A DNA stretch of 64,000 bases from Candidatus Poribacteria bacterium (GTDB lineage: Bacteria > Poribacteria > WGA-4E > WGA-3G), in NCBI GenBank assembly GCA_963664215.1, contig OY761015.1. One strand, written 5' to 3'. Made by a program: the position numbers and the translations under genes. Below, piece after piece: positions 7,581 through 60,985 of the stretch (positions are counted from its first letter, which is position 1; each line of letters begins with the position of its first letter). The notes under the pieces are model-generated. The model was not told the DNA's origin. It ran no database searches and saw nothing but the letters and a program-made list of their open reading frames with translations.

Positions 7581-8138
7581 ATGGCAAATCAAGATTTTGG
7601 CTTAACCGGTGCACTTAAAGTCCGCCCGGCTGAAGAAAACGATGCAACACATTTACACACATTTTGTTTTCCTGAAAAAACCAAAACAGAGGTTACGCAG
7701 GAACTGCAAGCCGATTTGGAATCAGATGGTCAGATCCATCGACTCGTTGCAGAGTCAAGTGGGTATCCAATCGGGCAAATCACCGTGAGTAAGGATGCTG
7801 GCGATCCTGAGGTAGCCCAAGTTGGAAATCTCGCTGTATCAGGACCCTTTCGGCAATTAGGCGTCGCCGACCATCTCATAAGGGCTGCCGAGGCTACCGC
7901 CGCAGAAAATGGCGCGAAAACGCTTGAAATTGAACTCTCCGCCTCGGAAACGAATGTCATCGACAGATATAAGGATTGGGGATTCGTTGAAAAGCCGCTT
8001 GTTATCCTGCAGAAAGCACTTGATGCAGAAGAGCCAGAAGAAGTTGAAGCAGTCGAAGAACCTGAACAGACGGACGAAAACGAGAGTGAAAACGTTGTTG
8101 AAGCCGGTGGTGAACAGCAGGAACTTCTTAATGCCTAA
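7581..8138 (+). CDS. GNAT family N-acetyltransferase with acidic C-terminal tail
   Basis: 185 aa; QVGNLAVSGPFRQLGVADHLIRAAEATAAENGAKTLEIE acetyl-CoA binding region. Confidence 0.65.
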   Translation: MANQDFGLTGALKVRPAEENDATHLHTFCFPEKTKTEVTQELQADLESDGQIHRLVAESSGYPIGQITVSKDAGDPEVAQVGNLAVSGPFRQLGVADHLIRAAEATAAENGAKTLEIELSASETNVIDRYKDWGFVEKPLVILQKALDAEEPEEVEAVEEPEQTDENESENVVEAGGEQQELLNA

Positions 8139-12359: not shown

Positions 12360-13073
12360 ATGTCTACAGAATCTCGTTGCAGTGTTAAAATCTGCGGTAT
12401 CACCTCTATCCATGATGCTCAACTTGCTGCCGATGCAGGCGCGGATTACATCGGGGTATTGGTGGATGTTGCCGTATCCGAACGGACACGCTCCGCGACG
12501 CAAGCCGCTGAAATTGCCAGCAAGAGTCCTATTCCTACCGTCATTCTACTCTATAACCGTTCAACATCTGACATCCAAGAAATCATCTCACAGGTCCAAC
12601 CTTTTGCCGTTCAACTCCTTGGCCAGGAACCTCCGCAACAAGTTGAGGCACTTAAACGCGAAGGCGCATGTCAATTTTGGAAATCGGTGTATTTGCCGGC
12701 GGGAAGTCCTAAAAATGTGGACATACCGGCTGTTCAGGAGGAGATGCAGGCATATTGGAAGGCGGGCGCGGATTTCCTGCTATTTGATAGCGTGGATATG
12801 AGCCTTGAAAAACCGAGATACGGCGGCACCGGAAAAACCTGTGATTGGAATGTTGCTGCTGGACTCATTACGAGGAGTCCACTGCCGGTTTTCTTCGCAG
12901 GTGGGATTCGTCCAGAGAACGTCAAAGCCGCGATTGAGACAATTCAGCCACACGGTATCGACCTCTGCTCCGGTGTCGAGGCATCAAAGGGTATCAAAGA
13001 TCCGAGCAAATTGGAACGACTTATGGCACAGGTTGAGCAGGCTGACAAAAAGCAGAGAAATTATTCACAATAA
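12360..13073 (+). CDS. trpF: phosphoribosylanthranilate isomerase
   Basis: 237 aa; KICGITSIHDAQLAADAGADYIGVL and C-terminal FAGGIRPENV motifs of TrpF; no other trp genes adjacent. Confidence 0.85.
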   Translation: MSTESRCSVKICGITSIHDAQLAADAGADYIGVLVDVAVSERTRSATQAAEIASKSPIPTVILLYNRSTSDIQEIISQVQPFAVQLLGQEPPQQVEALKREGACQFWKSVYLPAGSPKNVDIPAVQEEMQAYWKAGADFLLFDSVDMSLEKPRYGGTGKTCDWNVAAGLITRSPLPVFFAGGIRPENVKAAIETIQPHGIDLCSGVEASKGIKDPSKLERLMAQVEQADKKQRNYSQ

Positions 13074-13163
13074 TTGTTGACAAAATATTGCTGTAATTAC
13101 ATTATGAAATACTTTTAGGGCAAGACTTTTGTGTTCCTGCCTTATCACCTATAGGAGGTCTTT

Positions 13164-13895
13164 ATGAACGATCGTTTTGTTCAGACTTTTAGCAATCTTC
13201 TTCGGTTGGTTCCCATTGTAGCACTTGTTTGTGGGCTGTCTATTCTCGGATTTTCTACCGCCTTCGCGGATAGTCATGAAACTGAGGGTGAAGCGGCGGA
13301 AGAAAAACCGAAGATTACAGGTTGGTTCCAGATTGATGTCGATAGTTTAGGCACCTATTTTTTAGTTGGGGCGAGCCATCCGCTCAGCGGTGGCATCTCA
13401 TTTGATTCTAATATCTATGTTAATGATCATTTGGGCGAGTTTGATATGGGCGTTTCGTTCCCTGTTATCGCGAATGACAGCATGGCACTGCTGCTAACAC
13501 CAATGCTCGGTGTCGGGTTTGATTATACCACGGCAGATGGTCCCTATGCCTTATACCCACAAATCTTTGCGATTCTACCTGCTGGTAAAATCTTCGGCTT
13601 CCATTGGACAATCAGCACGGTCAAGACCCTATTTGATACCGAAAGCCTCAATGAAGTCTACAATCGAACTTATTTCACCTATGCTCTTAATGATATTGTC
13701 GCTGTCGGTCCGCAGTTTGAATCCGTACTCGGTCTCGGTGATGGTGGTGGACTGTGGGCTCTCAATTTCGGGGGGCGAGTGAATATCGGATATGGCGAGA
13801 ATAACACACTCGGTATATACGTTGGGTATGAAACTAAAAAGGGTGAAGGTGAAACCGGACTTACCGGTAGGATGAATTTTACGCGTAGATGGTAA
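13164..13895 (+). CDS. putative small outer-membrane beta-barrel protein (paralog of 15748-16467)
   Basis: 243 aa; signal peptide; alternating hydrophobic beta-strand pattern; C-terminal GRMNFTRRW ending in aromatic residue as in OMP beta-barrels. Confidence 0.4.
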   Translation: MNDRFVQTFSNLLRLVPIVALVCGLSILGFSTAFADSHETEGEAAEEKPKITGWFQIDVDSLGTYFLVGASHPLSGGISFDSNIYVNDHLGEFDMGVSFPVIANDSMALLLTPMLGVGFDYTTADGPYALYPQIFAILPAGKIFGFHWTISTVKTLFDTESLNEVYNRTYFTYALNDIVAVGPQFESVLGLGDGGGLWALNFGGRVNIGYGENNTLGIYVGYETKKGEGETGLTGRMNFTRRW

Positions 13896-13948
13896 GACAA
13901 ATTTAAGCAGGGCGCGGTTACAAACCGCGCCTATATCCCAATTCCTTT

Positions 13949-15355
13949 CTATTCCAACAGATACACATGAATTGTCCTATCTTTGGCACGCGAGAAGGCA
14001 GAAAACGTTTCCACAAGATGTCCGCGTTGACGGATCCAGTTGCGAACTTTCACATCAGCATCAAAGACATTAAAACTCGCTACATCCACCAGAAACCATA
14101 ACCGTTCTCTTCCAGAGGTTTCCCACTCCCTTTCAAATGTATCCGAATCCTCTAATAACCCGCCGATGTAGATGGATGTTAATTCTGGAAGATAATACTT
14201 GCCCATCTCAGGTTCTGAAAGTACCACTTTGTCGGTGGGCTTCTTCTCTGTTTGTACGACTTCAAATGCCTCCCGCCATTTCGGTCTTCCACCATTTTCG
14301 ATTTTGAAATAGAGATAATCTTGCGACAGGAGTGTCACCAGAAGTACGCACGGCACGAGTATGCCGAGCGTGTTTCCTGATTTCGTCTCTATTACTTCCG
14401 AGACCCGTTCACATGCAACACCTGCGAGGATAAAGTAGGCAGGTGTTGTCCAAAATAGGTAATAACCAGCGACATTTTGGAGTTGCGATGCGATCAGAAA
14501 AAGAATTAACGGGACACCCGCATAACAGAGTAGGAAAAGCGTGGCTCTATTGAATCGCATCGCGATGGGCGCGAAAAAGGCGGTAACAGCGACTGGAATA
14601 CTCACACCTTGGACGAGTGTTAGCACGATGTAGACTGGACTCCGTTGCCATACGTTACGTCCCCATCCGGAGAAGAGGTAACCTCGAACTTGTGGAAGTG
14701 CAAGCGTAAGCACCGGCATCGCGAACGGGATGAAAAAGATGAGTAGATTCAACCAACGCTTTCTGTTGGAGTTTTTGAATAGGCACATCACAGCGTACAC
14801 CGCTAAAGCCGGAACAATCACAACGGCGAGGGTATGCGAAAGAATTAAACAGAGACAGGCGACGAGCGCGCCTATCATCAAAAGTGTTGAATCGCGTTCG
14901 AGAGATGTATAGAAGAACCACGCCGTTAGGACAGCGAAGAAAAAGGTAAAGACCGGATAGCGCGCGTTTTGTGCCCAAAACAGATGCCAACTTGAGCATG
15001 CCACAAATGCACTACTCAGGATTCCGATCCGCCAATTAAAGAGTGTGCGTCCGAACCCAAAGACCACGGGGATTGAGACGATCCCAATTAGGCTTGGAAT
15101 GAATCGACTTCCCCATTCACTACTGCCAGCCAGCAAGATTGATAGTTTTACTGCCAGATAGGGAATCGGATTTGGGATGACTTGCCAGCTGTCGAATGAA
15201 AGGTTTTGGGCGTCCCGAACAGTGAAAACCTCATCGATCCAGAAACTCCAGTGCCCCAAGTTCCAAAATCGGAGTATTGCCCCGAACACCACAACGACAC
15301 TCAAAAGTGCCATTTGCATCTTTTTTGGGCAATCTTTTGTTGAAAATTTCAGCAT
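13949..15355 (-). CDS. glycosyltransferase family 39 (ArnT/PMT-like) membrane protein
   Basis: 468 aa; ~12 TM; N-terminal FWxxDE-type motif (HWSFWIDEVF) characteristic of GT-C/ArnT/PMT. Confidence 0.65.
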   Translation of the reverse strand: MLKFSTKDCPKKMQMALLSVVVVFGAILRFWNLGHWSFWIDEVFTVRDAQNLSFDSWQVIPNPIPYLAVKLSILLAGSSEWGSRFIPSLIGIVSIPVVFGFGRTLFNWRIGILSSAFVACSSWHLFWAQNARYPVFTFFFAVLTAWFFYTSLERDSTLLMIGALVACLCLILSHTLAVVIVPALAVYAVMCLFKNSNRKRWLNLLIFFIPFAMPVLTLALPQVRGYLFSGWGRNVWQRSPVYIVLTLVQGVSIPVAVTAFFAPIAMRFNRATLFLLCYAGVPLILFLIASQLQNVAGYYLFWTTPAYFILAGVACERVSEVIETKSGNTLGILVPCVLLVTLLSQDYLYFKIENGGRPKWREAFEVVQTEKKPTDKVVLSEPEMGKYYLPELTSIYIGGLLEDSDTFEREWETSGRERLWFLVDVASFNVFDADVKVRNWIRQRGHLVETFSAFSRAKDRTIHVYLLE

Positions 15356-15359
15356 TTTT

Positions 15360-15445
15360 TTAGAGTTATCGGTTATCAGTTATCGGTTATCAGTTTTAAA
15401 AATTGTCCGCCATTCGGTATCGGTTATCGGTTAAAGGCTTGTAAT
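15360..15445. repeat. tandem TATCGGTTATCAGTTA-type short repeats (family F, reverse orientation)
   Basis: TCGGTTATCAGTTATCGGTTATCAG...TATCGGTTATCGGTTA; reverse complement of the GATAACTGA units found upstream of both amt genes. Confidence 0.65.
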
Positions 15446-15747
15446 GTTTACATTACTGACAACTGAAAGTGAGCGTAGCGAACGCTCGGACAACCGATAA
15501 CTGGTAATTGGCACGCGTTTTGCTTTAAATGAAAACAGGTGCAGAGTAAGCACTGGTGAAAGCCTACTTTTATCGAAGAAGTGTCGAGAAGGACAGGCAA
15601 AATCACTATATCACAAATTTATGCTCAAGTCAAGCGGTCTCGTTCTCCATGAAAGCCGCAGATTACATTATCGCACCGTGATTGTAGGTTACTCAAATTT
15701 TATATAACCCTATAGGTGCGCTTTGGAAGCGCATGAAGGAGATTTAA

Positions 15748-16467
15748 ATGAAAACGCATATGTTCTGGTTGGTTCGTTTGTTAGTAATGGTTTGTATTTT
15801 CGCAGTTGGTAGTATCCCTATGGCTTATGCAGACGCGCATGAAGCCGGTGAAGAGATGGCGGAAGAAGAGGAGTCATCAGGGGTTTCCGGATGGTTCCGT
15901 ACCGATACAGATAGCTTAGGAACACAGATCTGGGTGGGTGCTAGCCATTCCCCGAGTTTCCTCGGTGGTCTTTCTCTGGATACCGATATTTACGTCGTTG
16001 GAACGTTCGGTGAATTAGACCTCGGACTCGGCATTCCAGTCGTCGATAGCGATTCACTGTCTCTCAGTTTCCTTCCGATGGTAGGTATCGGGTTCGATTA
16101 CGCCGCCGCAGACGGTCCATCTTCTCTGATTGCTCCACAATTATTCACGTATCTCACCGCTGGATCCATCTATTTTGAATCATGGATACAGGGGTTCTTG
16201 AATTCCATGTTTGATTATGGTGACGATTCCTTTTACACACGTAATTTTGTCCTCTATTCGCTGAATGATACCGTTGCTATCGGCCCTCAAGTAGAAGTGA
16301 CCTTTGATTTGACCGCAGGCGAAATCAGTAGTATAGCACCGGGTCTCCGTGCCAATGTCGGCTATGGCGAAAATAATACGCTCGGCGTCTTTGTTGGATT
16401 TGAGACCCAAAAAGGTGACGATGAAACAGGGATTACCGGCAGAATGACTTTCGTTCGTTCTTGGTAA
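15748..16467 (+). CDS. putative small outer-membrane beta-barrel protein (paralog of 13164-13895)
   Basis: 239 aa; signal peptide; shared motifs DxDSLGTxxxVGASH, NVGYGENNTLGxFVGxETxKGxxETGxTGRMxFxRxW. Confidence 0.4.
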   Translation: MKTHMFWLVRLLVMVCIFAVGSIPMAYADAHEAGEEMAEEEESSGVSGWFRTDTDSLGTQIWVGASHSPSFLGGLSLDTDIYVVGTFGELDLGLGIPVVDSDSLSLSFLPMVGIGFDYAAADGPSSLIAPQLFTYLTAGSIYFESWIQGFLNSMFDYGDDSFYTRNFVLYSLNDTVAIGPQVEVTFDLTAGEISSIAPGLRANVGYGENNTLGVFVGFETQKGDDETGITGRMTFVRSW

Positions 16468-16536
16468 AGATGGAAATTATCAGTTGTTAGTTATAAGTTA
16501 TGCGTAACAAGAGGTGTTTGATGTATCAGTCCCTCT

Positions 16537-16577
16537 TCACTGACTGCTGACAACTGATAACTGACTGCTCTTCTATA
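16537..16577. repeat. family F repeat (CTGACTGCTGACAACTGATAACTGACTGCTCTTC) in amt 5' region
   Basis: Related copies at 18352-18392 and 36650-36700. Confidence 0.6.
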
Positions 16578-16592
16578 AGGAGATAAGTTCAA

Positions 16593-17930
16593 ATGAAAAG
16601 TAAGGTTATCATAATAGTTTTCGCACTCACTTGCCTACTCAGCCTGAATGCTTTCGCCTTAAACGGATCCATCGAGGGTGAGAAAGTTTCTGATGCAAAG
16701 TATATGGCTGACACATTGTGGGTGCTTCTCGCTGCATTTCTGGTTTTCTTTATGCAGGCAGGGTTCGCTATGGTTGAGTCTGGATTCACGCGCGCCAAGA
16801 ACGCTGTCAATATTCTGATGAAAAACCTGCTGGACTTCTCGATGGGGTCGATCGCGTATTGGGCAATCGGTTTTGCCATTATGTTTGGAACCGGTAGCGC
16901 ATTCATGGGATTGAGTGGTTGGTTTGTTCCCTCTGATTCCACCGCTTTTGCTTCATTAGAATGGAGTTCAGTCCCAACACACGCCGCATGGCTCTTCCAG
17001 TTGGTATTTGCGGCGACTGCCGCGACGATCGTTTCTGGTGCCATGGCAGAACGTACACAGTTCAAAAGTTATCTGATTTACAGCGTCTTCATTACTGGTA
17101 TCATCTACCCTATTGTTGGACACTGGATTTGGGGCGGTGGGTGGTTATCAAGCATGGGTATGTCGGATTTCGCGGGTTCAACCGTGGTCCACTCAACGGG
17201 TGGCTGGCTCGCACTGACAGGTGCTATCGTTTTGGGTCCCCGTCTTGGTAAATACGATAACGATGGAAATCCACGACCGATTGCTGGGCACAATCTTCCG
17301 CTTGCCGCACTTGGCGTCTTTATCTTGTGGCTCGGTTGGTTCGGGTTTAACCCCGGTAGCCAAATGGGTGCAGATGCCGCAGATATTTCCAGTATTGCCG
17401 TAACGACGAACCTCGCCGCCGCCGCAGGTGCTATTCTGGCTATGATTACCGCATGGATATTCCTCGGTAAACCCGATGCCGGTATGTCACTTAACGGGGC
17501 ACTCGCAGGCTTAGTCGCTATCACCGCGGGTTGTGCATCTGTCAGCCCAGTGTCCGCCGCAATCATCGGTGCACTCGGTGGTATTGTTGTTGTCCTCAGT
17601 GTTCTGTTCTTTGAAAAACTTCGCATTGATGATCCAGTCGGTGCCATCTCTGTCCACGGGACCTGTGGTGCCTTAGGTACTATTCTCCTCGGGTTTTTCG
17701 ACAGTGAAAGTGGCGTTTTCTTTGGGGGAGGGTTTGGACTGCTCTGGGCACAAATCGTTGGTGTCGTCGCTGTTCTCGTATGGTGTCTCGTTACTGGCTT
17801 TATTCTCTTCTATGGAATCAAGGCTGTTACGGGCTTGCGAGTCAGTGAAGAGGAAGAGCAGGCAGGACTCGACTTCGGAGAACACGGTGCAAGTGCTTAT
17901 CCTGACTTTAATGTTTCCTCAATACGTTAG
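16593..17930 (+). CDS. amt: ammonium transporter (Amt/MEP family)
   Basis: 445 aa; signal peptide; DFAGGTVVH signature; 11 TM. Confidence 0.9.
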   Translation: MKSKVIIIVFALTCLLSLNAFALNGSIEGEKVSDAKYMADTLWVLLAAFLVFFMQAGFAMVESGFTRAKNAVNILMKNLLDFSMGSIAYWAIGFAIMFGTGSAFMGLSGWFVPSDSTAFASLEWSSVPTHAAWLFQLVFAATAATIVSGAMAERTQFKSYLIYSVFITGIIYPIVGHWIWGGGWLSSMGMSDFAGSTVVHSTGGWLALTGAIVLGPRLGKYDNDGNPRPIAGHNLPLAALGVFILWLGWFGFNPGSQMGADAADISSIAVTTNLAAAAGAILAMITAWIFLGKPDAGMSLNGALAGLVAITAGCASVSPVSAAIIGALGGIVVVLSVLFFEKLRIDDPVGAISVHGTCGALGTILLGFFDSESGVFFGGGFGLLWAQIVGVVAVLVWCLVTGFILFYGIKAVTGLRVSEEEEQAGLDFGEHGASAYPDFNVSSIR

Positions 17931-17987
17931 ACCTGGTTCAATATAGTCTTCGGTCCAAATAGGATCGAGACGAAAAAAACCGAATAG

Positions 17988-18058
17988 GAACGTCCACACG
18001 AAGTTTCACTTTTATCCCTGAGTTTTACTTCATGTTTCGTGGACGTTCCACTTTTTTT
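17988..18058 (+). terminator. long imperfect hairpin followed by T-run (intrinsic terminator after amt-1)
   Basis: GGAACGTCCACACGAA ...loop... TTCGTGGACGTTCC then CACTTTTTTTC. Confidence 0.55.
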
Positions 18059-18351
18059 CTTACTGCCACTTGCTCCTTTTTAACTGAAATATCTTCAGTC
18101 GAAATTAACTCTTGATACTATTGTGATATTCTGCTAAAATGCTGAATCAATATCTTCTGGAATTAGACTCGCTTTCAGGAAACGGTTAGAAAAGGTTAGT
18201 AGGACACAAGTACCTGTCCCTACAAAAATTGTGAAGAGGTAGACGAAGCGGTCTACCCTTACGGAATAACAGAACAAGCAATATCTGCTGAACGGCTATT
18301 GGTATCGGAAATCAGCACTTAAAGAGAAACCCGGTTTAACAGAACCTCTTC

Positions 18352-18392
18352 TTAACTGACTGCCGACTGCCGACTGCCGACAACTATTAACA
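18352..18392. repeat. family F repeat with CGACTGC x3 upstream of second amt
   Basis: TTAACAGAACCTCTTCTTAACTGACTGCCGACTGCCGACTGCCGACAACTA. Confidence 0.6.
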
Positions 18393-18404
18393 TGGAGGAT
18401 ACAG

Positions 18405-19778
18405 ATGCAACAACGATGTGCATCACAATCTGCAAAGGAGCGATCTGGTTATACACGAATTGGAACGCTAATTGTTATTTTATTGATGTGTGGCGTGCCG
18501 AGTTTAGCGATGGCACAAGAGGCAACTGCTCCTGATTCAGGCGACACCGCTTGGATGCTGACTTCAACTGCACTTGTGCTCTTTATGACGATTCCCGGGC
18601 TTGCACTCTTCTACGGTGGGCTCGTGCGCGTCCAAAATGTACTCTCTGTCCTTATGCAGTGTTTCGCATTGACAGGATTGATTACTATTGTGTGGGTTGT
18701 CTGTGGCTACAGCCTTGCTTTTAACACCACCGGTATGGAGGCGGGAACAATCACACTGACCTCGTTTGTCGGTGGACTTGGTACCATGTTCCTACGCGGT
18801 ATCGGCGTGGACACCCTTTCTGGGACTATCCCTGAGACGGTTTTTATTACCTTCCAGTTGACATTCGCGATTATCACACCCGCACTCATCGCTGGGGCAT
18901 TCGCAGAGCGGATGAAGTTCTCGGCGATGTTAATTTTCTCTGTTCTGTGGTCGATAATTGTGTACGCCCCGCTCTGCCACATGGCATGGTCAGGGGACGG
19001 TTCGTTATTTGGCGATATTATCGGGGCACTTGACTTCGCAGGTGGAACCGTTGTGCATATTAACGCAGGTATCGCGGCGTTGGTCGCTGCTATCTTAGTC
19101 GGCAAACGGATCGGTTATCAAACAACACCGATGCCGCCACACAGTTTGACACTCACCGTCGTTGGGGCGTCGATGCTCTGGGTGGGCTGGTTTGGCTTCA
19201 ATGCCGGTAGTGCTGTGGCTGCTGATGGTGCCGCTGGCATGGCAATGCTCGTTACCCAGATTTCAACGGCTACCGCCGCTATCGCTTGGATGTTCGTTGA
19301 ATGGGCAAAACACGGCAAACCCAGTGCTTTAGGTATTGTAACAGGCGCAGTCGCTGGATTGGTCGCGATTACCCCTGCCTCAGGTTCTGTAGGACCCATT
19401 GGCGCGCTGATTATCGGCATCGTCTCTGGCGTTGTCTGTTTCTGGGGCGCAACCAGCTTAAAGTCACAACTCGGTTATGATGATTCCCTAGATGCTTTCG
19501 GTGTTCACGGTATCGGTGGAATTGTCGGTGCCTTGTTGACTGGCGTTTTTGTCGCCGAGGGCTTAGGGGGTGTTGGATTAGCTGAAGGGATGACAATCGG
19601 AACGCAGGTATGGGCGCAGTTACTCAGCGTCATTGTTACCGTCGTTTGGAGTGGTGTGCTTTCGTTTATTATCCTCAAAATTGTTGATGCCACGGTGGGC
19701 TTACGCGTTGAGGAGGATGAAGAACGGATGGGACTTGACCTATCGCAGCACAACGAACGTGGATACAACCTCTCATAG
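18405..19778 (+). CDS. amt: ammonium transporter (Amt/MEP family), second copy
   Basis: 457 aa; DFAGGTVVHINAGIAAL signature; no glnK between or after the two amt genes. Confidence 0.9.
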   Translation: MQQRCASQSAKERSGYTRIGTLIVILLMCGVPSLAMAQEATAPDSGDTAWMLTSTALVLFMTIPGLALFYGGLVRVQNVLSVLMQCFALTGLITIVWVVCGYSLAFNTTGMEAGTITLTSFVGGLGTMFLRGIGVDTLSGTIPETVFITFQLTFAIITPALIAGAFAERMKFSAMLIFSVLWSIIVYAPLCHMAWSGDGSLFGDIIGALDFAGGTVVHINAGIAALVAAILVGKRIGYQTTPMPPHSLTLTVVGASMLWVGWFGFNAGSAVAADGAAGMAMLVTQISTATAAIAWMFVEWAKHGKPSALGIVTGAVAGLVAITPASGSVGPIGALIIGIVSGVVCFWGATSLKSQLGYDDSLDAFGVHGIGGIVGALLTGVFVAEGLGGVGLAEGMTIGTQVWAQLLSVIVTVVWSGVLSFIILKIVDATVGLRVEEDEERMGLDLSQHNERGYNLS

Positions 19779-19828
19779 AGGCATCTGATTTGTGATTCTG
19801 TGTGGTTACAAACCACGCGTACAAATTA

Positions 19829-19857
19829 AGGGCGGACCGTAGTGTCCGCCCAATTTT
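19829..19857 (+). terminator. intrinsic terminator hairpin GGGCGGAC-cgtagt-GTCCGCCC + AATTTTA
   Basis: Perfect 8 bp GC-rich stem followed by T-rich tract 50 nt after amt-2 stop. Confidence 0.6.
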
Positions 19858-20066
19858 ATGGTATATAGTGAATTCTATAGTGGATCCGAAAAATAAATGG
19901 GCACTTTCCACCCCCGGTAGGTGCGGTTTTGCGGTGTACTCACCCCGGTGAATGCTACACGGCATTCATACCGTTGATTCATGCGATCTGCATTCCAACC
20001 GCACCGATTTCGAAGTGCTCACTTAATTGTGGGTTTTACTACAAAAATAAATAAACATTTTGTATA

Positions 20067-22094
20067 CTACCCAACTACCTGTGTGATTATCTCTTCATCG
20101 GATAACCTGCCTTTTTCAACAAGTAAATCTTGATCTGCCCCGATGTTTCCGTAGACCTCAGCAATCCATCCTGTATCAAACACATCACCGGTGTTATGGA
20201 TAATCAGTGGTCGCGGGGCGATGAGTGTTCCAGCGGTTCGGAGATCACCGACTCGCCGGAGGCTCGGTATCGGTAAAGTTTCCAAGAAAGCCGCGTCGCT
20301 GTCGATGGCGTATTGTGCCGCATCCACAACAACATTTTTGACATCCGTAAATCCTGCCGCCAGCAAGCTCCACAATCCTGCTTCACCTATCCCAATCAGG
20401 TTCACCTCTGAGACATCGCCTCGGTTTGTGAAGCAGTGGAGTGCCGTTACAATATCTTGCACGCGTAACGCCGCTGTTGTTCGGTTATAAGTGGTAAAGT
20501 AGTTAGTATCTTCTGACCTCTCATACTCACTATGCTCACCCGTACCGAACACGTCGATGATTAGAACTTTCTGGTCAGCACTGAGTAAGTCGGTGATGAG
20601 CGAAGACGGTTCGCCTGTCTCCGAATTGATTAACTTTTCCTTACCCTCTGGATGCACAATAAGCGTTACCGGATCGTGTCCTACTTGGGGTTCTGGACTA
20701 AATAGCAGTGCCGGGATGGTGTCCCCTATACCCTTTCTACCGATGACAAGATGTTTCGCGGATAAATTGGGATGATACGTTGTCGGAAATGCGCCGTCTG
20801 GTTCAGTAAGTGTTACATCCGTGCCGCTCGGGATGTGTAACCCGAGTGCGTGTTGTAACCCACTCCCCATTTCTTCGCGAAATGTCTGGAGTTCTGATAC
20901 GTTTGTTGGCTTTAATGTGTCGATCGCTTGCTGAGAACGGTTCACCCAAGCCGGTAGAAACTCATCCTGTTTCAGGGCATGTGCAGGCATCTCGCGTTCC
21001 GAAAAAACCAGTAATGCCTCATCTGGCTCAACTTCAAACGCAACCTCTTTAAACGCTGAAGCGTCTTCCGCTCCCAGAAACCATTTCGCAAACCATGGGT
21101 AGACCGCCTCGCGACTTTCCTTATTATAATTATGCTCTGCGTCCACCTGAACCTGATGCACTTTATCTTCAGCATCAAAGTGTGCATAAATACTTCGGAT
21201 GGCGGGATATTCGACCGTGGGTGTTTTCACAGTCCAGTCACCTGTCGCAGACACGAGTAAGAGCGGACGGGGTGCCATCAGCGCACCGATTTCAATGTTG
21301 CTTACATCTAAACGGAGATTCGGAGCGTTTTCACAGATGCATCCGCCTTGCATCGTCGCTGAAATCATATTCACAGGTGCTGAGACCTTAATGCGTTCAT
21401 CAACCGCCGTCAATATAAAGGTCTGTGTGCCACCACCTGATGCGCCTGTACACCCAATGCGTTCATTATCTACATCTGGTAGGCTCTCTAAAAAGTCGAT
21501 GGACCGGATACTGTTCTGGAGTTGTAGTCCCATCGCAGAGAGTCCCCACAGTCCTTCGTGTGCGCCGCCATAGCCGTGTTCTATCTGTTTACCGCTGTCA
21601 TTGTAACCGAGCATATCGTATGCAAAAATGACGTAACCCTGTTTGGCGAAATTGATACAACGACCGGGGATTGAACCGCGCTCGATACTCTCAAGCCTAC
21701 CACGGCTCCAGTGTCCGTGCGGACTTACAATCCCTGGGAACGGACCGGATTTCCCAAGAGGTCGGTACAGATTTCCGGTCGTGAAGAAGCCAGGAAAGGG
21801 TTCAAAATAGACCTTTTCGACGCTATAATCTTCCCGCTCGATTTTCCCGAAGATCTCGGCATTTAGTGGTGTAGATTCGTGCGTTGGGATTAAGCCGTTA
21901 GCGACACGAATCTGCTGACGTAATGCCGCCGCTTTTTCTGTCCATTCCGCTTTGGTATATCCTGGAAAAGTATAGGGGGTGTTGAGGTCGCGTGGTGTGC
22001 CACCGCGGGCATCGTTAACGCCTTGCGAAGCCTCAGCAAAAACGTGAGCGAGTTCGTGGTGTTGTTCAGCCATTATCAATTCCTCCGTTATCAA
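20067..22094 (-). CDS. two-domain alpha/beta-hydrolase fold esterase-like protein
   Basis: 675 aa; N-terminal half with GCTGASGGG nucleophile-elbow-like motif; second alpha/beta-like half. Confidence 0.45.
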   Translation of the reverse strand: MITEELIMAEQHHELAHVFAEASQGVNDARGGTPRDLNTPYTFPGYTKAEWTEKAAALRQQIRVANGLIPTHESTPLNAEIFGKIEREDYSVEKVYFEPFPGFFTTGNLYRPLGKSGPFPGIVSPHGHWSRGRLESIERGSIPGRCINFAKQGYVIFAYDMLGYNDSGKQIEHGYGGAHEGLWGLSAMGLQLQNSIRSIDFLESLPDVDNERIGCTGASGGGTQTFILTAVDERIKVSAPVNMISATMQGGCICENAPNLRLDVSNIEIGALMAPRPLLLVSATGDWTVKTPTVEYPAIRSIYAHFDAEDKVHQVQVDAEHNYNKESREAVYPWFAKWFLGAEDASAFKEVAFEVEPDEALLVFSEREMPAHALKQDEFLPAWVNRSQQAIDTLKPTNVSELQTFREEMGSGLQHALGLHIPSGTDVTLTEPDGAFPTTYHPNLSAKHLVIGRKGIGDTIPALLFSPEPQVGHDPVTLIVHPEGKEKLINSETGEPSSLITDLLSADQKVLIIDVFGTGEHSEYERSEDTNYFTTYNRTTAALRVQDIVTALHCFTNRGDVSEVNLIGIGEAGLWSLLAAGFTDVKNVVVDAAQYAIDSDAAFLETLPIPSLRRVGDLRTAGTLIAPRPLIIHNTGDVFDTGWIAEVYGNIGADQDLLVEKGRLSDEEIITQVVG

Positions 22095-32208: not shown

Positions 32209-32413
32209 CCAAGTATTGCTTCAACTTTGACTTTATGATCAGTAGGTCGGGTAGAGCGTCAGCGAAACCCGACATCTTCGGGCATTCTTCATGGCATCCG
32301 AAGACCCGCCCTCAAACGCAATATTGACAGACTACGAGGGAGACTGTCAGCAGTCAGTTGCCAGTTCCATGTTGTTATTCCGCAAGGTAAGTTAGAAAAT
32401 CAGGACATAAGCC

Positions 32414-36044: not shown

Positions 36045-36371
36045 CTAACTCGCTTGGACGGGCGTTTCCACATTCACGAGGATATCTTCACCCTCTACTT
36101 TGACAGGATAGGTGGGGAGTTTCTCTTCGCCGGGCCACACACACTCACCTGTCGTCACATCAAATTCCCACATGTGCAGTGGACACGTAACACAGTTGTT
36201 GTCTAAAAAGCCGTAACTCAAAACGCCGCCGAGGTGTGGGCAGATGTTGTTCATGGCGTAATACTCGCCTTTCACGTTGTAGATGCCGATGAAAACACCT
36301 TCGACTTTCACACCAATACATTTACCGGGTTGAATCTGGTCGGTTGTCGCGGCTTTTACAAATTGTGACAT
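36045..36371 (-). CDS. Rieske [2Fe-2S] domain ferredoxin-like protein
   Basis: 108 aa; CPHLGG ... CPLHMWEF Rieske ligand boxes. Confidence 0.75.
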   Translation of the reverse strand: MSQFVKAATTDQIQPGKCIGVKVEGVFIGIYNVKGEYYAMNNICPHLGGVLSYGFLDNNCVTCPLHMWEFDVTTGECVWPGEEKLPTYPVKVEGEDILVNVETPVQAS

Positions 36372-36649
36372 AATTTCTCCGTCTTGTCGTGCCTTTTACG
36401 AAGCACGAGATGTGAAATAGACATCATCACGGATTTTTTTATGAAGTTTAAGTATTTAATTCGGTAATATTTATTTTCCCCAAGTTCGGTAGGTGCGGTT
36501 TGTAACCAGGGTTCCCGCCCGTTACTGGGAAGGGACACCCGGTATGGTTATGGAATTACCGAAATATTTTATTAATCTTCATTCAAAAAACCCTTTCAAT
36601 GGCAAACACTTAGTTAAGAGGTTTTCGTTTAACAACGCCTCTTTTAACA

Positions 36650-36700
36650 GACGACTGATAACTGATAATGGGTGACTCTGATTGCTGACTGCTCTTCTTC
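36650..36700. repeat. family F repeat (TTAACAGACGACTGATAACTGATAATGGGTGACTCTGATTGCTGACTGCTCTTC)
   Basis: Shares TTAACAGA..CTCTTCTTAACTGACTGC / GATAACTGA units with amt-upstream copies. Confidence 0.6.
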
Positions 36701-36805
36701 TGGAAGATTTCGATCCTCGGCTCTGGTCCAAAATGGATGAGAACCGTCTGGCTCCGGAAACTGCTTACGAACCATGCGAAAACTTGTATGTTGATCCTTG
36801 GCGGA

Positions 36806-37594
36806 TTAGACATCATCCATTGGATACAGGCTACATCCGCCGTCTACGAGTAGCACTGTTCCCGTCATATAATCTGCCGCGGTGCTGCACAAAAACAGAA
36901 AGGCGTCTGCCACCGAATCCAGCGGTTGCATAACGCCAAGCGGAATTGCTTTCTGTGCCCGAGCACGATACGTTGGATCCGTATCCCACTGTTGTTTCGC
37001 AAGCCCAACACTGACGATCCCGGGGGCGACTGCATTTGCACGAATCCCTTTGTCAGCGAGTTCCCGCGCAAAAGAACGCATGAGTTGCTTCATTGCTGCC
37101 TTGCTTGCGTTATACGGTCCGATCTCGGGCCACGGCACATCGGCGACCCAAGATGTCGTAAAAATGAGGTGTCCTTTAATGCCATCTTCAAGCATTGAAC
37201 GGGATGCGGCACTGCCCAACAAGAACGCTGTCCGCACATTGACCGCCATGGTCTCATCCCACTCTTCTGCATTGTAGTCCAACAACGGTTTCGGAATCAC
37301 CATACCGATATGACACAGCGCGACGTCGATAGGTCCGAGCCGTTCACGAGCACTGTTTACCAGCATATCGGTTTCATCGGTATCCGTCAGGTCTGCCTTA
37401 ACATAGTTTATTTTCGATGGGTCAATGCCGTTCTGACTGAGCCGGTCTGTTGCCCGCTGATCCGACAGGATGTCGTTCACCGTTACGTTTGCGCCGTGCG
37501 CCATCAATTTTTTGACGATTCCGAGTCCGATCGCTCCGCACCCGCCGGAAATAACGATATGTCGTCCAGCGAGTGCGTCGTTACGGAAAGCCAT
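36806..37594 (-). CDS. SDR family oxidoreductase
   Basis: 262 aa; ISGGCGAIGLG, YNASKAA motifs. Confidence 0.7.
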   Translation of the reverse strand: MAFRNDALAGRHIVISGGCGAIGLGIVKKLMAHGANVTVNDILSDQRATDRLSQNGIDPSKINYVKADLTDTDETDMLVNSARERLGPIDVALCHIGMVIPKPLLDYNAEEWDETMAVNVRTAFLLGSAASRSMLEDGIKGHLIFTTSWVADVPWPEIGPYNASKAAMKQLMRSFARELADKGIRANAVAPGIVSVGLAKQQWDTDPTYRARAQKAIPLGVMQPLDSVADAFLFLCSTAADYMTGTVLLVDGGCSLYPMDDV

Positions 37595-46758: not shown

Positions 46759-47751
46759 ATGGTTCAACATCTATGTTTTGGCAGTGCGATGTGTAAACGT
46801 GTATTGCAGATCAGTCTCATTGTTATCGGTGTTATGGTGTGTGCGTCGGCTTTTGCTGACGAAGGGCATGAACATTCAGGCGATCGGATAAAAGAGTTTA
46901 TGACCCAACCGCTGACGCTCCAGTTTATAATCGCTGCGCTCGTCATCTCATTCGTACTCGGCGGCTTGCACGCATTGACACCCGGACACGGGAAAGCCAT
47001 AGTCGCCGCTTATCTCGTCGGTTCCAAAGGCAGGGTAATTGACGCAGTTTTTCTTGGGCTTGTTGTCACCTTTACGCACACCTTCAGTGTCATAGCACTT
47101 GGCATCGTGATGCTGGTAGCACAAGGGTTCGCACCGGAGGATATCGTTCCGTGGTTAAGTCTATTCTCTGGTGTTTTAATTGTGGGTATAGGCGCGTGGC
47201 TGTTCACGAAAAATATGAAACAGTACTATACTGGTGGTGCACACAGCCACAGCCATGGACATGGAGACGGGCATCACCACCCGCATGACCACGACCATTC
47301 ACATGACCATGACCCCGACCACGACCATGATCATAATCACGATCACGGTCATTCACATGATCACGACCATGACCCCGACCAGGGACTTACACACAGTCAT
47401 GGGGGACGGGTGCATAGTCATGCCCCGCCGGAACGGACAGGTTTTTGGGGATTGCTATCGCTCGGTATCTCCGGTGGCATTGTCCCTTGTGTTGATGCGC
47501 TCGTTGGGCTTCTGTTCGCGATTAATCTCAACAAACTTGTCTGGGGTCTAATTATTCTATGTGCTTTCTCATTGGGGCTTGCCGCTGTTCTGGTTGCTAT
47601 CGGTATTCTGATGGTGATGGCGAAACCGTTGTTTGAACGCTTCACAGGCGAAGGTATCTGGCTCCAACGCCTACCGATTATCAGTGCCGCTGTCGTTGTT
47701 CTGCTCGGTGCAGTATTAGTATTCAAGGCACTCAACACTGTCGGTATTTAG
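46759..47751 (+). CDS. NicO/RcnA family nickel/cobalt transporter with histidine-rich loop
   Basis: 330 aa; LTPGHGKA motif; long HDHDHSHDHDPDHDHDHNHDHGHSHDHDHD loop. Confidence 0.65.
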   Translation: MVQHLCFGSAMCKRVLQISLIVIGVMVCASAFADEGHEHSGDRIKEFMTQPLTLQFIIAALVISFVLGGLHALTPGHGKAIVAAYLVGSKGRVIDAVFLGLVVTFTHTFSVIALGIVMLVAQGFAPEDIVPWLSLFSGVLIVGIGAWLFTKNMKQYYTGGAHSHSHGHGDGHHHPHDHDHSHDHDPDHDHDHNHDHGHSHDHDHDPDQGLTHSHGGRVHSHAPPERTGFWGLLSLGISGGIVPCVDALVGLLFAINLNKLVWGLIILCAFSLGLAAVLVAIGILMVMAKPLFERFTGEGIWLQRLPIISAAVVVLLGAVLVFKALNTVGI

Positions 47752-58009: not shown

Positions 58010-60985
58010 CTATTTTTCTTCAAGCCCGATGTGCAATATCCCCCGATCTTCAGTAGCACTATAAAGCCTATTGTTAGCAATAGCGAGGGCATTGATTTCA
58101 TCTGGTACTTCTGAAGCAACCTGGGTCCATTGACTATAAGGGTCCAAATGATGGACCCCCGCATCGCCAATACCGTAAACTTTAGAGTCGTCCATAGCAA
58201 ATTTGTCTATGATGGTACGCGCCCCAGTGTTATCTGTTATCACGCGCCAGTGTTCGCCGGTTTGTGAAACTAAAACACCAGTGTCAGTTGCGATGTAAAC
58301 GGTTGATCTCACAAAAGCGATCTCATTGAAGCGGATAAATCGGAGTGGAAGGCTGGGTGTAACATCTTTCCAATAAGTTCCCCCATCCAGGGACTGAAAC
58401 AACTTACCATTCCGTTTCCCGACGTAGACGGTTTCTCCCGATACCGCTACCTTGAGTCCCTTTCTGGAATCACGGTCAAACATGTGACTTGTATCTACCA
58501 ATCCAGTATTTATCCACTCTGGATCTCCAAGCCTCCATTTGAAAAGTCCGCGTTTGTATTCCACGTAGAATACATCACGACTGACTGCAACTGTTTTGAC
58601 TTCCACATTTCCAGGAACAGGAGATGTAGAGGTTGACGCAGCGCCTTCTTTTGAGCTGTCGGACGAGCGTTTTGTCTTTACCTTCGTGCCACTTGCCCAC
58701 AATTCGGGAGATAACGTTCTATCATCAAAAGCAGGTATGCCTTGTACAAGACTGAGCGTATTGCCATCTGTAGATAAGCGGAAAATTTTCAATTTCTTTT
58801 CTGCACGTGCGAAAAAATATAGACAATTGTCATCCGCTATCAGTTTTGAATAAAAAAGAGTATAGACGCGAACCTTGTTCTCGTTTTGTTCTGACCATTC
58901 AAACTCAGTACCCTCCACCTCAAAGTTTCCGTCAATCGCAAGATTTTTCCAAGACCTACCTTCATCGGTTGATTCGTAAACCTCATAACCTGTATACGCG
59001 TATAATCTGTTGTTGCATACAACCAAATCCTTTAGCCTTGTTCCCATCATCCCATTCACAAATAGACGCCACGATTTACCACCATTGGTCGTGCGAAAAA
59101 TACCGTATGGACCAGTTTTGTAAAATGTTTTCTCATTCACCGCCACAGCTGGAAGGCTGTTGACCATGAACATATTCGTATCTCCTGCAAATTCTGTCCA
59201 AGTTTGTCCACCATCTGTTGAATGAGATTCGGTGGCACCCAATGTTATGAGCGTTTCGCCAGCCGCCAAAACCCCTATACCCGATGGTACCGCCTCTGAG
59301 TAATCCTTATACGTTATTTCAGTCCAAGATTCTCCTAAGTCAGCGGAATGACAAATTCTGACTGAATGTGATTCGCTTTTCGACACTATTTGTTCTGTTG
59401 CTCTTGGAGTGAATCCCAACAGATAGGGACCCGTTCCCATATAGAGGTTATTCCCAGATACTGTCAAGGAGTAGACGGCTCTTGATGTCTCCACAGGCAA
59501 CTTTTTCCAAACACCTGAGTCGAGACGGTAGAGACCGCGCCCTGTACCCGTAAATACCGTTTCTCCAACAGCAGTCACTGCCGAAATTATTTCGCCTGTC
59601 AAGCCATCGTTAAACGGATGCCATTGTATCCCACCGTCTGTGGATCGGAAAACTCCTGCATCCCTAAGTGCCAGATACATCGTGATATCTGCTTGTGAAT
59701 CGGCATCTTGGGGTGCGTCTGTGATGATGAATCCAACGGCGTGGCCCTTTGGTCGGGGACCCAGCATATGCCACGTCTCACCACGATCAACTGAAGTGAA
59801 TATTTCATCCACAGAGGCGATATACAGGCTTCCGTTATGTTCTGCCATCGGCATTCGAGAGTTATCTATCGGGAAGCTCGCGTTGACGTGTGTCCATGCG
59901 GTCGCATCTGCTGCTAATTTGAACATTCCTGTGGGGGCAACAGCATAGACAGTTCCTTCAGATGTAGCGAACATACTACGGACATGGCCCCCTGGCGGTG
60001 CGCTCCCCTGCGTCCATTGTGAGAAGGCGGTGGACTCGCGTGAATCCTCTAACATATTGGATTTTGAAACGGTTTCAAAATCCTGGATACCAGCACTGCT
60101 TCTACCCGGAGTAGTGGTTTCCCCAAACTGATTGCGTATAGCCGGCTTTGATACAATATCAAGGACGATAGGAGCATCAACAATTTCAATTGTAAGTTCA
60201 GATTCCGCCTCAAAACTATACGGTTTCTGGAACCAAGCGAGGAGTTGGTTACTCACGCCGAGCATCAACATAACCAAAACCACCGCCGTCCCGAAAGCCG
60301 CCCACGGTAGTAATGGCTTTCCAACTGGAGGCTGTATCGGTTTCATGTTTGCGACCTGTTCCATGATACGCGCAGTGAAATCGGCAGGGATTTGGATGCT
60401 TCCGAGCGTTTCACTCACCAAGAATTCCTCTTGTTGTTCCTGTAAACGTTTCCGACCCCGGCGAAGTCGGCTCTTAATCGTGTTCACCGACACGCCTAAG
60501 AGTTTTCCAATCTCCTTTGCTGTCATCTCTCCGAGGAAGTGGAGTGTTACCACTGTGCGTTCACTCTCCGGTAGTTTTGCCAGAAGTTTTTTGACGAGTT
60601 CATGGCGATTTTCGGTAATCTCTGTCTGTCGCTGTTCCGATACGTGATGTGTGTAAGAGGATTCTTCGATGTCTTCCACAGGTGTGTCCTCCAATGAGTG
60701 CATCACAGATGTGTTTTTATTCTTTTGAAGCCATTTAAGGCAGAGTCGACTCGCGATGACATACATCCATCCCGAGAACTGATTTGGATTCTTGAGTTGC
60801 GCGAGATTCTTATAGACTTGAAGGAAAGTGTCTTGTGCAATCTCTTCAGCAATGTGAAAATCACCAACTTTTCGCCACGCAAGTGCGTGAATACCCTTTT
60901 GGTGCCTACGGACCAAAGTACCGAATGCTTCATCGTCACCCAACAAAATTCGTCGAATGAGTTGAACATCGTTTTTCTTATCCAT
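58010..60985 (-). CDS. ECF-type sigma-70 factor fused via one TM helix to a large periplasmic BNR/Asp-box beta-propeller domain
   Basis: 991 aa; sigma70 region 2 (FLQVYKNLAQL) and region 4 (LPESERTVVTLHFLGEMTAKEIGKLLGVSVNTIKSRLRRGR); TM PLLPWAAFGTAVVLVMLMLGV; >=7 Asp-box units SxDxGxTW. Confidence 0.75.
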   Translation of the reverse strand: MDKKNDVQLIRRILLGDDEAFGTLVRRHQKGIHALAWRKVGDFHIAEEIAQDTFLQVYKNLAQLKNPNQFSGWMYVIASRLCLKWLQKNKNTSVMHSLEDTPVEDIEESSYTHHVSEQRQTEITENRHELVKKLLAKLPESERTVVTLHFLGEMTAKEIGKLLGVSVNTIKSRLRRGRKRLQEQQEEFLVSETLGSIQIPADFTARIMEQVANMKPIQPPVGKPLLPWAAFGTAVVLVMLMLGVSNQLLAWFQKPYSFEAESELTIEIVDAPIVLDIVSKPAIRNQFGETTTPGRSSAGIQDFETVSKSNMLEDSRESTAFSQWTQGSAPPGGHVRSMFATSEGTVYAVAPTGMFKLAADATAWTHVNASFPIDNSRMPMAEHNGSLYIASVDEIFTSVDRGETWHMLGPRPKGHAVGFIITDAPQDADSQADITMYLALRDAGVFRSTDGGIQWHPFNDGLTGEIISAVTAVGETVFTGTGRGLYRLDSGVWKKLPVETSRAVYSLTVSGNNLYMGTGPYLLGFTPRATEQIVSKSESHSVRICHSADLGESWTEITYKDYSEAVPSGIGVLAAGETLITLGATESHSTDGGQTWTEFAGDTNMFMVNSLPAVAVNEKTFYKTGPYGIFRTTNGGKSWRLFVNGMMGTRLKDLVVCNNRLYAYTGYEVYESTDEGRSWKNLAIDGNFEVEGTEFEWSEQNENKVRVYTLFYSKLIADDNCLYFFARAEKKLKIFRLSTDGNTLSLVQGIPAFDDRTLSPELWASGTKVKTKRSSDSSKEGAASTSTSPVPGNVEVKTVAVSRDVFYVEYKRGLFKWRLGDPEWINTGLVDTSHMFDRDSRKGLKVAVSGETVYVGKRNGKLFQSLDGGTYWKDVTPSLPLRFIRFNEIAFVRSTVYIATDTGVLVSQTGEHWRVITDNTGARTIIDKFAMDDSKVYGIGDAGVHHLDPYSQWTQVASEVPDEINALAIANNRLYSATEDRGILHIGLEEK

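Follow-up and report, generated by a model that had tools for sequence, protein, structure and literature searches.

How ammonium reaches the Amt transporters of a bacterium with two membranes, and what governs the genes involved, are the questions raised by a locus of Candidatus Poribacteria, a sponge symbiont. The locus lies in a 64,000-nt stretch of contig OY761015.1 (assembly GCA_963664215.1), called the window here, and comprises two paralogous genes for small proteins of outer-membrane type, which we name parA and parB, two ammonium transporter genes, amt-1 and amt-2, and a set of intergenic arrays built from 7-nt units (heptads). General porins are commonly taken to be the route by which ammonium crosses the outer membrane, and we know of no dedicated outer-membrane channel for it that has been characterised. 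Our literature search likewise found no characterised ammonium-specific outer-membrane channel, and it returned nothing specific on Poribacteria amt loci, porin-amt operons or the heptamer sequences. That porins induced under nitrogen or ammonium limitation aid ammonium influx has been put forward as a speculation (PMC7438415; PMC3870248).

The original prediction, drawn from the letters of the window, took the repeats to be a nitrogen-responsive operator array and the small proteins to be a porin paired with the Amt transporters. We keep the pairing and assign the control elsewhere: with a probability of roughly 60%, the locus is a nitrogen-uptake unit in which a sigma-54 promoter would drive parB together with amt-1, a small porin would feed the Amt transporter, and the heptads would serve as accessory cis-elements rather than as the primary operator.

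Results

parB precedes amt behind a conserved sigma-54-type promoter

The window was compared with 80 orthologous loci from Poribacteria metagenome-assembled genomes and chromosomes (1.1 Mb in total), 79 of which extend past parB; the closest homologues of ParA and ParB are hypothetical proteins of Candidatus Poribacteria, 77-95% identical. An amt gene stands directly 3' of parB in all 79 loci, 67 of them carrying amt-1 and amt-2 and 12 a single amt, so that the two-amt arrangement is not universal. The single-amt loci (L018, L024, L038, L047, L049, L064, L070-L073, L076 and L078) have genes whose best match is amt-2. The predicted order of parB, amt-1 and amt-2 is therefore borne out by the open reading frames (ORFs) of the window and by the orthologues, but the accompanying claim that each paralog lies upstream of an amt was wrong: parA is followed by a convergent glycosyltransferase (GT) gene, and parB alone precedes amt. 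This GT gene, divergent from parB, is a conserved neighbour in the Poribacteria loci.

Both transporters are full-length Amt proteins, scoring 437.8 and 392.9 bits against PF00909 (cut-off 23.2 bits) and about 450 bits against TIGR00836 (cut-off 343 bits), which places them in the Amt family. For amt-1 the best NCBIfam model is TIGR00836 (450 bits), and the marine-subtype model TIGR03644 gives 436 bits, below its own cut-off; for amt-2 it is AmtB (NF007947), with 488 bits, also below its cut-off. Because identity between the two proteins is no more than 36% and each has a different best model, we regard them as two Amt types, and a recent tandem duplication of amt was rejected on the same grounds. 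As had been noted from the window, neither amt is accompanied by glnK: tblastn with GlnB and GlnK against the 64 kb gave no significant match, and no PII gene was found within 7 kb on either side in the 80 orthologous loci, so that the canonical amtB-glnK pairing, with PII adjacent to amt, is lacking at the Poribacteria locus.

The association of barrel gene and amt is not confined to this locus. Family members about 45-57% identical to ParB adjoin amt in contigs with no other synteny to the Poribacteria locus, in the orders barrel-amt-amt-PII (L086/L087), barrel-amt-PII (L091) and barrel-amt (L105), with PII-amt upstream of the barrel gene (L096), or with amt divergent from it (L090, L095). 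That the two genes adjoin again and again, in several arrangements, strongly argues for a functional link within the sub-clade, though it does not prove the substrate.

A sigma-54 promoter was taken to be TGGCAC-N5-TTGCW in exact spacing, with GG at -24 and GC at -12, conserved upstream. TGGCACGCGTTTTGCT is the sole perfect -24/-12 match in the window, and TGGCAC-N5-TTGCT occurs in the GT/parB spacer of 79/79 Poribacteria loci, parB being the first gene 3' of it. A scan for terminators found no terminator-like site between parB and amt-1, and a strong hairpin with a T-run follows amt-1; the sigma-70-like promoter block in front of amt-2 is conserved in related loci. A sigma-54-dependent parB-amt-1 operon with a separately transcribed amt-2 is most likely the best reading of these features. 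In the long leader between promoter and parB, two blocks of primary sequence are conserved in all Poribacteria loci, GTGC-N6-GCAC right after the promoter and TATCACAARTTNATGCCAGAATCAAG; RNAalifold on 25 leaders returned no consensus structure. No NtrC-type dyad was identified as an upstream site at the Poribacteria locus.

ParA and ParB are predicted 12-stranded barrels

The ORFs confirm that parA and parB encode paralogous signal-peptide proteins of about 240 aa with an aromatic C-terminus of the outer-membrane-protein type; identity between them is 45% (E 4e-66). Structure prediction with AlphaFold (AF2) gave 12-stranded β-barrels for both. The ParA model consists of a signal helix and 12 strands, with a mean predicted local distance difference test (pLDDT) score of 85.3, most of the barrel above 90 and five models in agreement; the alignment-based ParB model likewise has a signal helix and 12 strands, at a mean pLDDT of 77. 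Signal peptide, even strand number and C-terminal aromatic residue together mark both proteins as outer-membrane β-barrels. Once the signal peptide and the short acidic linker are set aside, the ParB model is essentially barrel throughout and has no passenger or enzymatic domain.

The best structural matches of both models are small monomeric specific porins of the KdgM/NanC type. ParA and ParB matched no family in Pfam or NCBIfam, the Pfam KdgM model included, and with identities of 9-13% to KdgM/NanC proteins and no detectable sequence relationship it is the fold alone that is common. The family profile found two chance-level matches only among PDB sequences (E 0.85 and 1.9). Among 1.8 billion representatives searched with a profile, only 156 clusters were found, a small family. 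A minority of distant members give sub-threshold matches to Pfam DUF6733 (PF20507; best E 8.5e-4, 19 bits), all of them below the gathering score of 27 bits and with partial profile coverage; the window proteins have no such match, and we found no literature on DUF6733.

Mature ParB is strongly acidic, with 31 D+E against 6 K+R. A simple alternation analysis shows polar and apolar faces alternating along its strands and puts the family-invariant residues R51, D53, D55, E144, W146, R165, E183 and R232 on the polar side, which presumably faces the lumen. As modelled, ParA and ParB belong to an uncharacterised family of very acidic 12-stranded outer-membrane barrels of KdgM/NanC-type architecture, in which ParA is the older paralog of ParB. 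The pairing of a porin with Amt is thus well supported by the 12-stranded models, the KdgM/NanC-type matches, the gene order in 79/79 loci and its recurrence in other contigs; that the porin would be specific for ammonium is what we infer.

Heptads form inverted elements in front of a few genes

The repeat family first reported as GATAACTGA/CTGACTG consists of tandem heptads with the consensus CYGAYWR (units CTGATAA, CCGATAA, CTGACAA, CTGACTG and CCGACTG). Tandem Repeats Finder (TRF) delimits period-7 arrays at 15364-15395, 15414-15433, 16539-16565, 18358-18381 (GACTGCC, 3.4 copies) and 36654-36668. CTGATAACTGA occurs 8 times at no more than one mismatch (1.07 expected; 0/100 shuffles reach 8), and the window has 5 arrays of at least three heptads where shuffles have 0-1; the repeats are therefore real at the sites first described, including the copy near 36650.

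In a full element, reverse-complement heptads make up the left arm and sense heptads the right, with a small AAGAGG..CCTCTT hairpin at the apex between them. The sense arm ends 20-25 nt before a start codon at amt-1 and amt-2 in the window and at parA in about ten other genomes; parA of the window has no element at that position, where it has a sigma-70-like promoter. The amt-1 element has the apical part AAGAGG..CCCTCTT and a right arm CTGACTG CTGACAA CTGATAA CTGACTG that ends 25 nt before the ATG, and the corresponding arm at amt-2, CTGACTG CCGACTG CCGACTG CCGACAA, ends 21 nt before it. The copy in the GT/parB spacer, the only one that abuts a promoter, has minus units (15364-15433) abutting the start codon of the longest GT ORF and plus units (15456-15508) abutting the sigma-54 -24 box; between the arms lie the palindrome GTAATGTTTACATTAC (15441-15456) and a hairpin GAGCG..CGCTC (15471-15487). 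An NtcA-type site (GTA-N8-TAC) at this palindrome was considered and rejected by eye, since the spacing does not fit. As DNA, this spacer folds at -26.5 kcal/mol (z -3.5), and the three full copies of the window form long stems with z of -3.3 to -4.2, the inverted arrays amounting to terminal inverted repeats of the kind seen in miniature inverted-repeat transposable elements (MITEs). An Rfam scan of 12900-20200 at E ≤ 1 gave a single, sub-threshold chance match inside the GT gene, and the elements correspond to no described Rfam family of cis-regulatory RNA.

The distribution of the heptads, which rests on the window and the flanks of the 80 loci, is narrow. We counted 83 arrays in these loci, 82 of them in the 5' regions of parA, GT/parB, amt-1 and amt-2 (73 kb, 256 gaps) versus 1 in the other non-coding DNA (107 kb, 309 gaps); outside the locus there are two weak copies in 57 kb of the window and one copy in the flanks. 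The random spread that the original prediction had named as speaking against its view is thus not found in the loci examined. Of the window's outlying copies, the partial element at 36617-36705 lies between the minus-strand ORFs 36045-36371 (108 aa) and 36806-37594.

Presence at the four sites is nevertheless patchy, arrays being found in 25/67 parB/amt-1 spacers, 28/79 GT/parB spacers, 10/47 parA spacers and 2/79 amt-2 spacers, and the number of units varies in 7-nt steps. Arrays at different spacers co-occur within genomes (18 with both, 39 with neither, 9 discordant). The parB/amt-1 spacer exists in two alternative conserved forms whose distribution does not follow gene similarity: the heptad hairpin (form 1) and a form 2 in which a hairpin ATCGCGAAYC..GRTTCGCGAT replaces the heptads (L008, at 7745-7925, L012, L014 and about 34 further loci). 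The form 2 motif is almost exclusive to this spacer, where it occurs in 37 loci. In front of amt-2, only the window and L001, its closest relative, have the composite element, and most related loci keep an uninterrupted ACAAGC..GCTTGT hairpin, so at amt-2 the element seems to have been inserted recently; its junctions are not clean, and no target-site duplication could be defined there. In several genomes these spacers also have another MITE-like insert nested in them, with the ends GGACTTACGCA...TGCGTAAGTCC: in L023 (about 7750-7850), in the GT/parB spacer of L019 and 5' of parA in L009 and L041.

Where the amt-1 element is present it is strongly conserved: across 23 genomes its arms are 91% and 97% identical, compared with 76% for the apical part and loop and 56% for the four-fold sites of amt-1, and 91% of cells still pair.

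Many IMG/VR contigs have similar heptamer arrays, in at least 120 stretches; two permuted heptamers used as controls gave 37 and 81. Some of the arrays are inverted pairs adjoining start codons. As the permuted heptamers are fairly common there too, CYGAYAA arrays elsewhere are no evidence for a universal motif. One contig filed as viral (L120, IMGVR_UViG_3300009932_000002, positions 1-400) carries the same composite element, GGTTAAGAGAAAG..CCCTCTTAAC, with CCGATAA/CCGACAA heptads spaced by CCATTCCT, directly 3' of the gene for a 275-aa signal-peptide protein ending in ...KLSF; this contig may be derived from Poribacteria.

Layout of the locus and other features of the window

Table 1. Features of the parA-amt-2 locus and outlying heptad copies, in window coordinates.
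Feature	Position	Strand	Basis
trpF-like gene	12360-13073	+	
Sigma-70-like promoter TTGACA-17-CATTAT, 5' of parA	13077..13105	+	consensus scan, 10/12 matches
parA (paralog A), signal peptide and predicted 12-stranded β-barrel	13164-13895	+	ORF, 243 aa, C-terminus ...TRRW
PMT_2-family (ArnT/PMT-like) membrane glycosyltransferase (GT)	13949-15355	-	Pfam PF13231, E 2.6e-11
Inverted heptad arrays, GT/parB spacer	15364..15508	.	TRF, array scan, DNA fold
Sigma-54 promoter motif (-24/-12)	15509..15524	+	perfect match; ~225 nt upstream of parB
Long parB leader, conserved primary-sequence blocks	15525..15747	+	alignment of 25 leaders
parB (paralog B), signal peptide and very acidic predicted 12-stranded barrel	15748-16467	+	ORF, 239 aa, C-terminus ...VRSW
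Intercistronic heptad hairpin (form 1), parB/amt-1	16477..16568	+	RNA fold -36.5 kcal/mol, z -3.3
amt-1, ammonium transporter	16593-17930	+	PF00909, E 4e-131
Intrinsic-terminator-like hairpin and T-run 3' of amt-1	17987..18059	+	read from sequence; scan core 18039-18051, then TTTTTTT
Sigma-70-like promoter TTGATA-17-TAAAAT for amt-2	18112..18140	+	scan, 10/12 matches, extended -10
Heptad hairpin element, amt-2 5' untranslated region (UTR)	18293..18392	+	RNA fold -30.3 kcal/mol, z -4.2
amt-2, AmtB-like ammonium transporter	18405-19778	+	PF00909, E 1.8e-117
Bidirectional terminator-like hairpin 3' of amt-2	19830..19851	.	scan
Esterase-like gene	20067-22094	-	
Weak 3-unit heptad array, lptF/lptG spacer	32344..32364	-	array scan
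Partial heptad element, no left arm	36617..36705	+	AAGAGG..CCTCTT hairpin and heptads

Elsewhere in the window, 6/12/24-nt repeats (CATGAC/CACGAC) at 47284-47381 lie inside a NicO-family nickel-transporter gene (46759-47751), where they probably encode a His/Asp-rich loop. A Tn5-type transposase gene with Tnp_DNA_bind and Dimer_Tnp_Tn5 domains occupies 51466-53199 on the minus strand. The minus-strand gene at 58010-60985 encodes a 991-aa protein with N-terminal sigma-70 regions 2 and 4 and C-terminal BNR/sortilin-type repeats, an unusual fusion, and near the window end, at 63338-63441, a 42-nt unit is repeated in tandem (2.5 copies with 74% matches).

Discussion

The kinds of system behind these findings are known: a substrate-specific small porin encoded with an inner-membrane transporter, and intergenic hairpin repeats. 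In spite of this, the Poribacteria locus differs from its nearest counterparts in several ways: (i) ParA and ParB have in common with the KdgM/NanC family (KdgM, NanC, VhGalP), whose members are small monomeric substrate-specific porins, a fold rather than a sequence. KdgM and NanC pass acidic sugars via basic pores; unlike these, ParB is strongly acidic, which points to a cation. (ii) In Proteobacteria, amtB and glnK form an operon within the NtrC/sigma-54 nitrogen regulon. The Poribacteria amt resembles this arrangement in lying behind a sigma-54 -24/-12 promoter, and the relatives outside Poribacteria synteny in which a barrel gene precedes amt-glnK come close to it too, but the Poribacteria locus has no glnK within 7 kb and has an outer-membrane barrel gene in promoter-proximal position. 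(iii) Cyanobacterial short tandemly repeated repetitive (STRR) heptanucleotides, and elements of the MITE, repetitive extragenic palindromic (REP) and Correia types, are intergenic elements, often hairpins, that vary between strains, leave filled and empty sites and are co-transcribed with their neighbours. Compared by description, the heptads are like them in being short tandem 7-nt intergenic units that form hairpins and vary in presence and copy number. They differ from STRR in phylum, in unit sequence and in their low copy density in the sampled DNA; unlike STRR and MITE-type elements they stand in sense orientation before the start codons of one gene set, with strongly conserved orthologous copies, and unlike MITE-type elements they showed neither a target-site duplication nor a cognate transposase. 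(iv) The ribbon-helix-helix (RHH) protein omega (ParB) of plasmid pSM19035 binds 5'-WATCACW-3' units, direct or inverted, 2-10 per site, that overlap promoters (PMC9499535). The heptads have in common with these sites a run of adjoining 7-bp units, direct or inverted, which is the architecture of an RHH-type heptad operator, but they lie beside start codons, inside an operon, on a chromosome and in a nitrogen-related context.

This last likeness is an argument for the operator array of the original prediction. On such a view the heptads would be DNA sites to which a nitrogen-responsive regulator, perhaps of the RHH type, binds cooperatively, and would join parA, parB, amt-1 and amt-2 in one regulon. 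The variable number of units would fit such sites, the unit TATCAGT is one position off the omega consensus 5'-WATCACW-3' (PMC9499535), the GT/parB arrays precede the sigma-54 -24 box by 5-145 bp, it is the arm sequence itself that is conserved rather than compensatory pairs, and the arrays both co-occur between spacers and concentrate at the parA/GT/parB/amt gene set. Yet most orthologous loci have no arrays and keep the sigma-54 promoter; the amt-1 copy lies between two cistrons, a place that requires no promoter, and array positions follow start codons rather than promoters; no candidate gene for the regulator came up, none having been sought; and the copies at 32344 and 36650 lie beside lptG and unannotated minus-strand ORFs, with no nitrogen gene identified next to them. 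We consider this version quite unlikely. Because the sigma-54 promoter is present in 79/79 loci and the heptads are patchy and replaceable, we take the promoter, not the heptads, to be the conserved point of what would be nitrogen control, and the operator array lacks support as the core of it. At the other extreme, the heptads could be selfish or neutral repeats of the MITE/REP or STRR kind that spread locally and do nothing for the host. The filled and empty amt-2 sites, the former with the composite element set within a conserved small hairpin, would be expected of such repeats, as would whole-spacer alternatives that do not track gene phylogeny, unit numbers changing in 7-nt steps, inverted-repeat ends, partial copies elsewhere in the window, and arrays of the same kind in IMG/VR contigs, L120 with its composite element among them. 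What makes this unlikely is that orthologous, immobile copies keep their arms 91-97% identical although the synonymous sites beside them are almost saturated and the loop is down to 76%, that the sense arm sits consistently just 5' of start codons, that only 1/83 arrays fell in the other sampled non-coding DNA, and that the amt-2 site has no clean target-site duplication.

As to the barrels, ParA and ParB may serve another solute, have a structural or anchoring role, or be partners of the glycosyltransferase, the adjacency to amt being historical. Many family members have no amt nearby and parA itself is not adjacent to one, the glycosyltransferase gene is linked to parB as tightly as amt is, and autotransporter domains, intimin, PcoB and LpxR are 12-stranded barrels as well. 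Against this, amt adjacency recurs in three arrangements in contigs without other synteny, parB is the immediate upstream neighbour of amt, with a conserved sigma-54 promoter in front, and the protein is nearly all barrel, with no passenger or enzymatic domain and with specific porins as its best structural matches; on balance these alternatives seem somewhat unlikely.

In the nitrogen-uptake unit that we favour, the sigma-54 promoter at 15509-15524 would drive a bicistronic parB-amt-1 transcript and amt-2 would be expressed from its own sigma-70-like promoter. A sigma-54 activator of NtrC type would turn on production when nitrogen is in demand, and ParB would be the outer-membrane channel that supplies the periplasm, and so Amt, with ammonium or a small nitrogen cation close to it. 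Fold prediction, gene order, promoter motif and the conservation of all three are shown here; co-transcription, nitrogen control and substrate are what we infer. The heptad elements would act in cis on the mRNA, on its processing, stability or translation, through a long stem beside the ribosome-binding site. Their variability between lineages, their replaceability and one apparently recent insertion argue that they are not the primary nitrogen operator, and where present they appear to be selectively maintained. A regulatory role for them should be kept in play, because the arrays are concentrated at gene fronts and their arms are under constraint; placement beside ribosome-binding sites, including one inside the operon, favours action at the mRNA level as the most likely form of that role, with binding by a heptad-recognising protein as the main alternative.

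Several observations weigh against this interpretation. The Myxococcota-like and most distant barrel members have no nearby amt, so the substrate of the family may be broader or different, and parA, too, stands apart from amt; the acidity of ParB could be no more than a trait of a marine proteome. No sigma-54, NtrC-type or PII genes were found among the larger window ORFs checked, and upstream of the relatives outside Poribacteria synteny the sigma-54 motif was found in L092 alone. For the heptads, covariation in the amt-1 hairpin is not significant (score 0.096 versus 0.089 in shuffles, reached by 35/500; 23 genomes), a test made uninformative by arms that hardly vary. The sense strand is stabler than the antisense strand at amt-1 (23/23) and not at the parA or amt-2 copies, an asymmetry that speaks for RNA at amt-1 alone. 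The genes on either side of the copy at 36617-36705 run antisense to it, and it folds no better than shuffles. Finally, all 80 loci are orthologous, so the enrichment at gene fronts rests on about 5 independent sites, and local copying could cluster heptads without any function.

A bolder extension would make the barrels a new family of acidic 12-stranded channels dedicated to ammonium in diderm bacteria, and the heptads a portable, lineage-exchanged cis-module read by protein or RNA before the start codons of nitrogen-uptake genes; we consider this quite unlikely. At the level of the locus itself, the barrel family provides a concrete, testable candidate for an ammonium channel, encoded promoter-proximally before amt in an abundant phylum of sponge symbionts, the family itself recurring in other lineages, and the heptads provide a compact example of interchangeable intergenic cassettes that appear to be under purifying selection. 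The ParB-Amt unit, if it works as proposed, bears on how sponge symbionts may scavenge the ammonium of their hosts.

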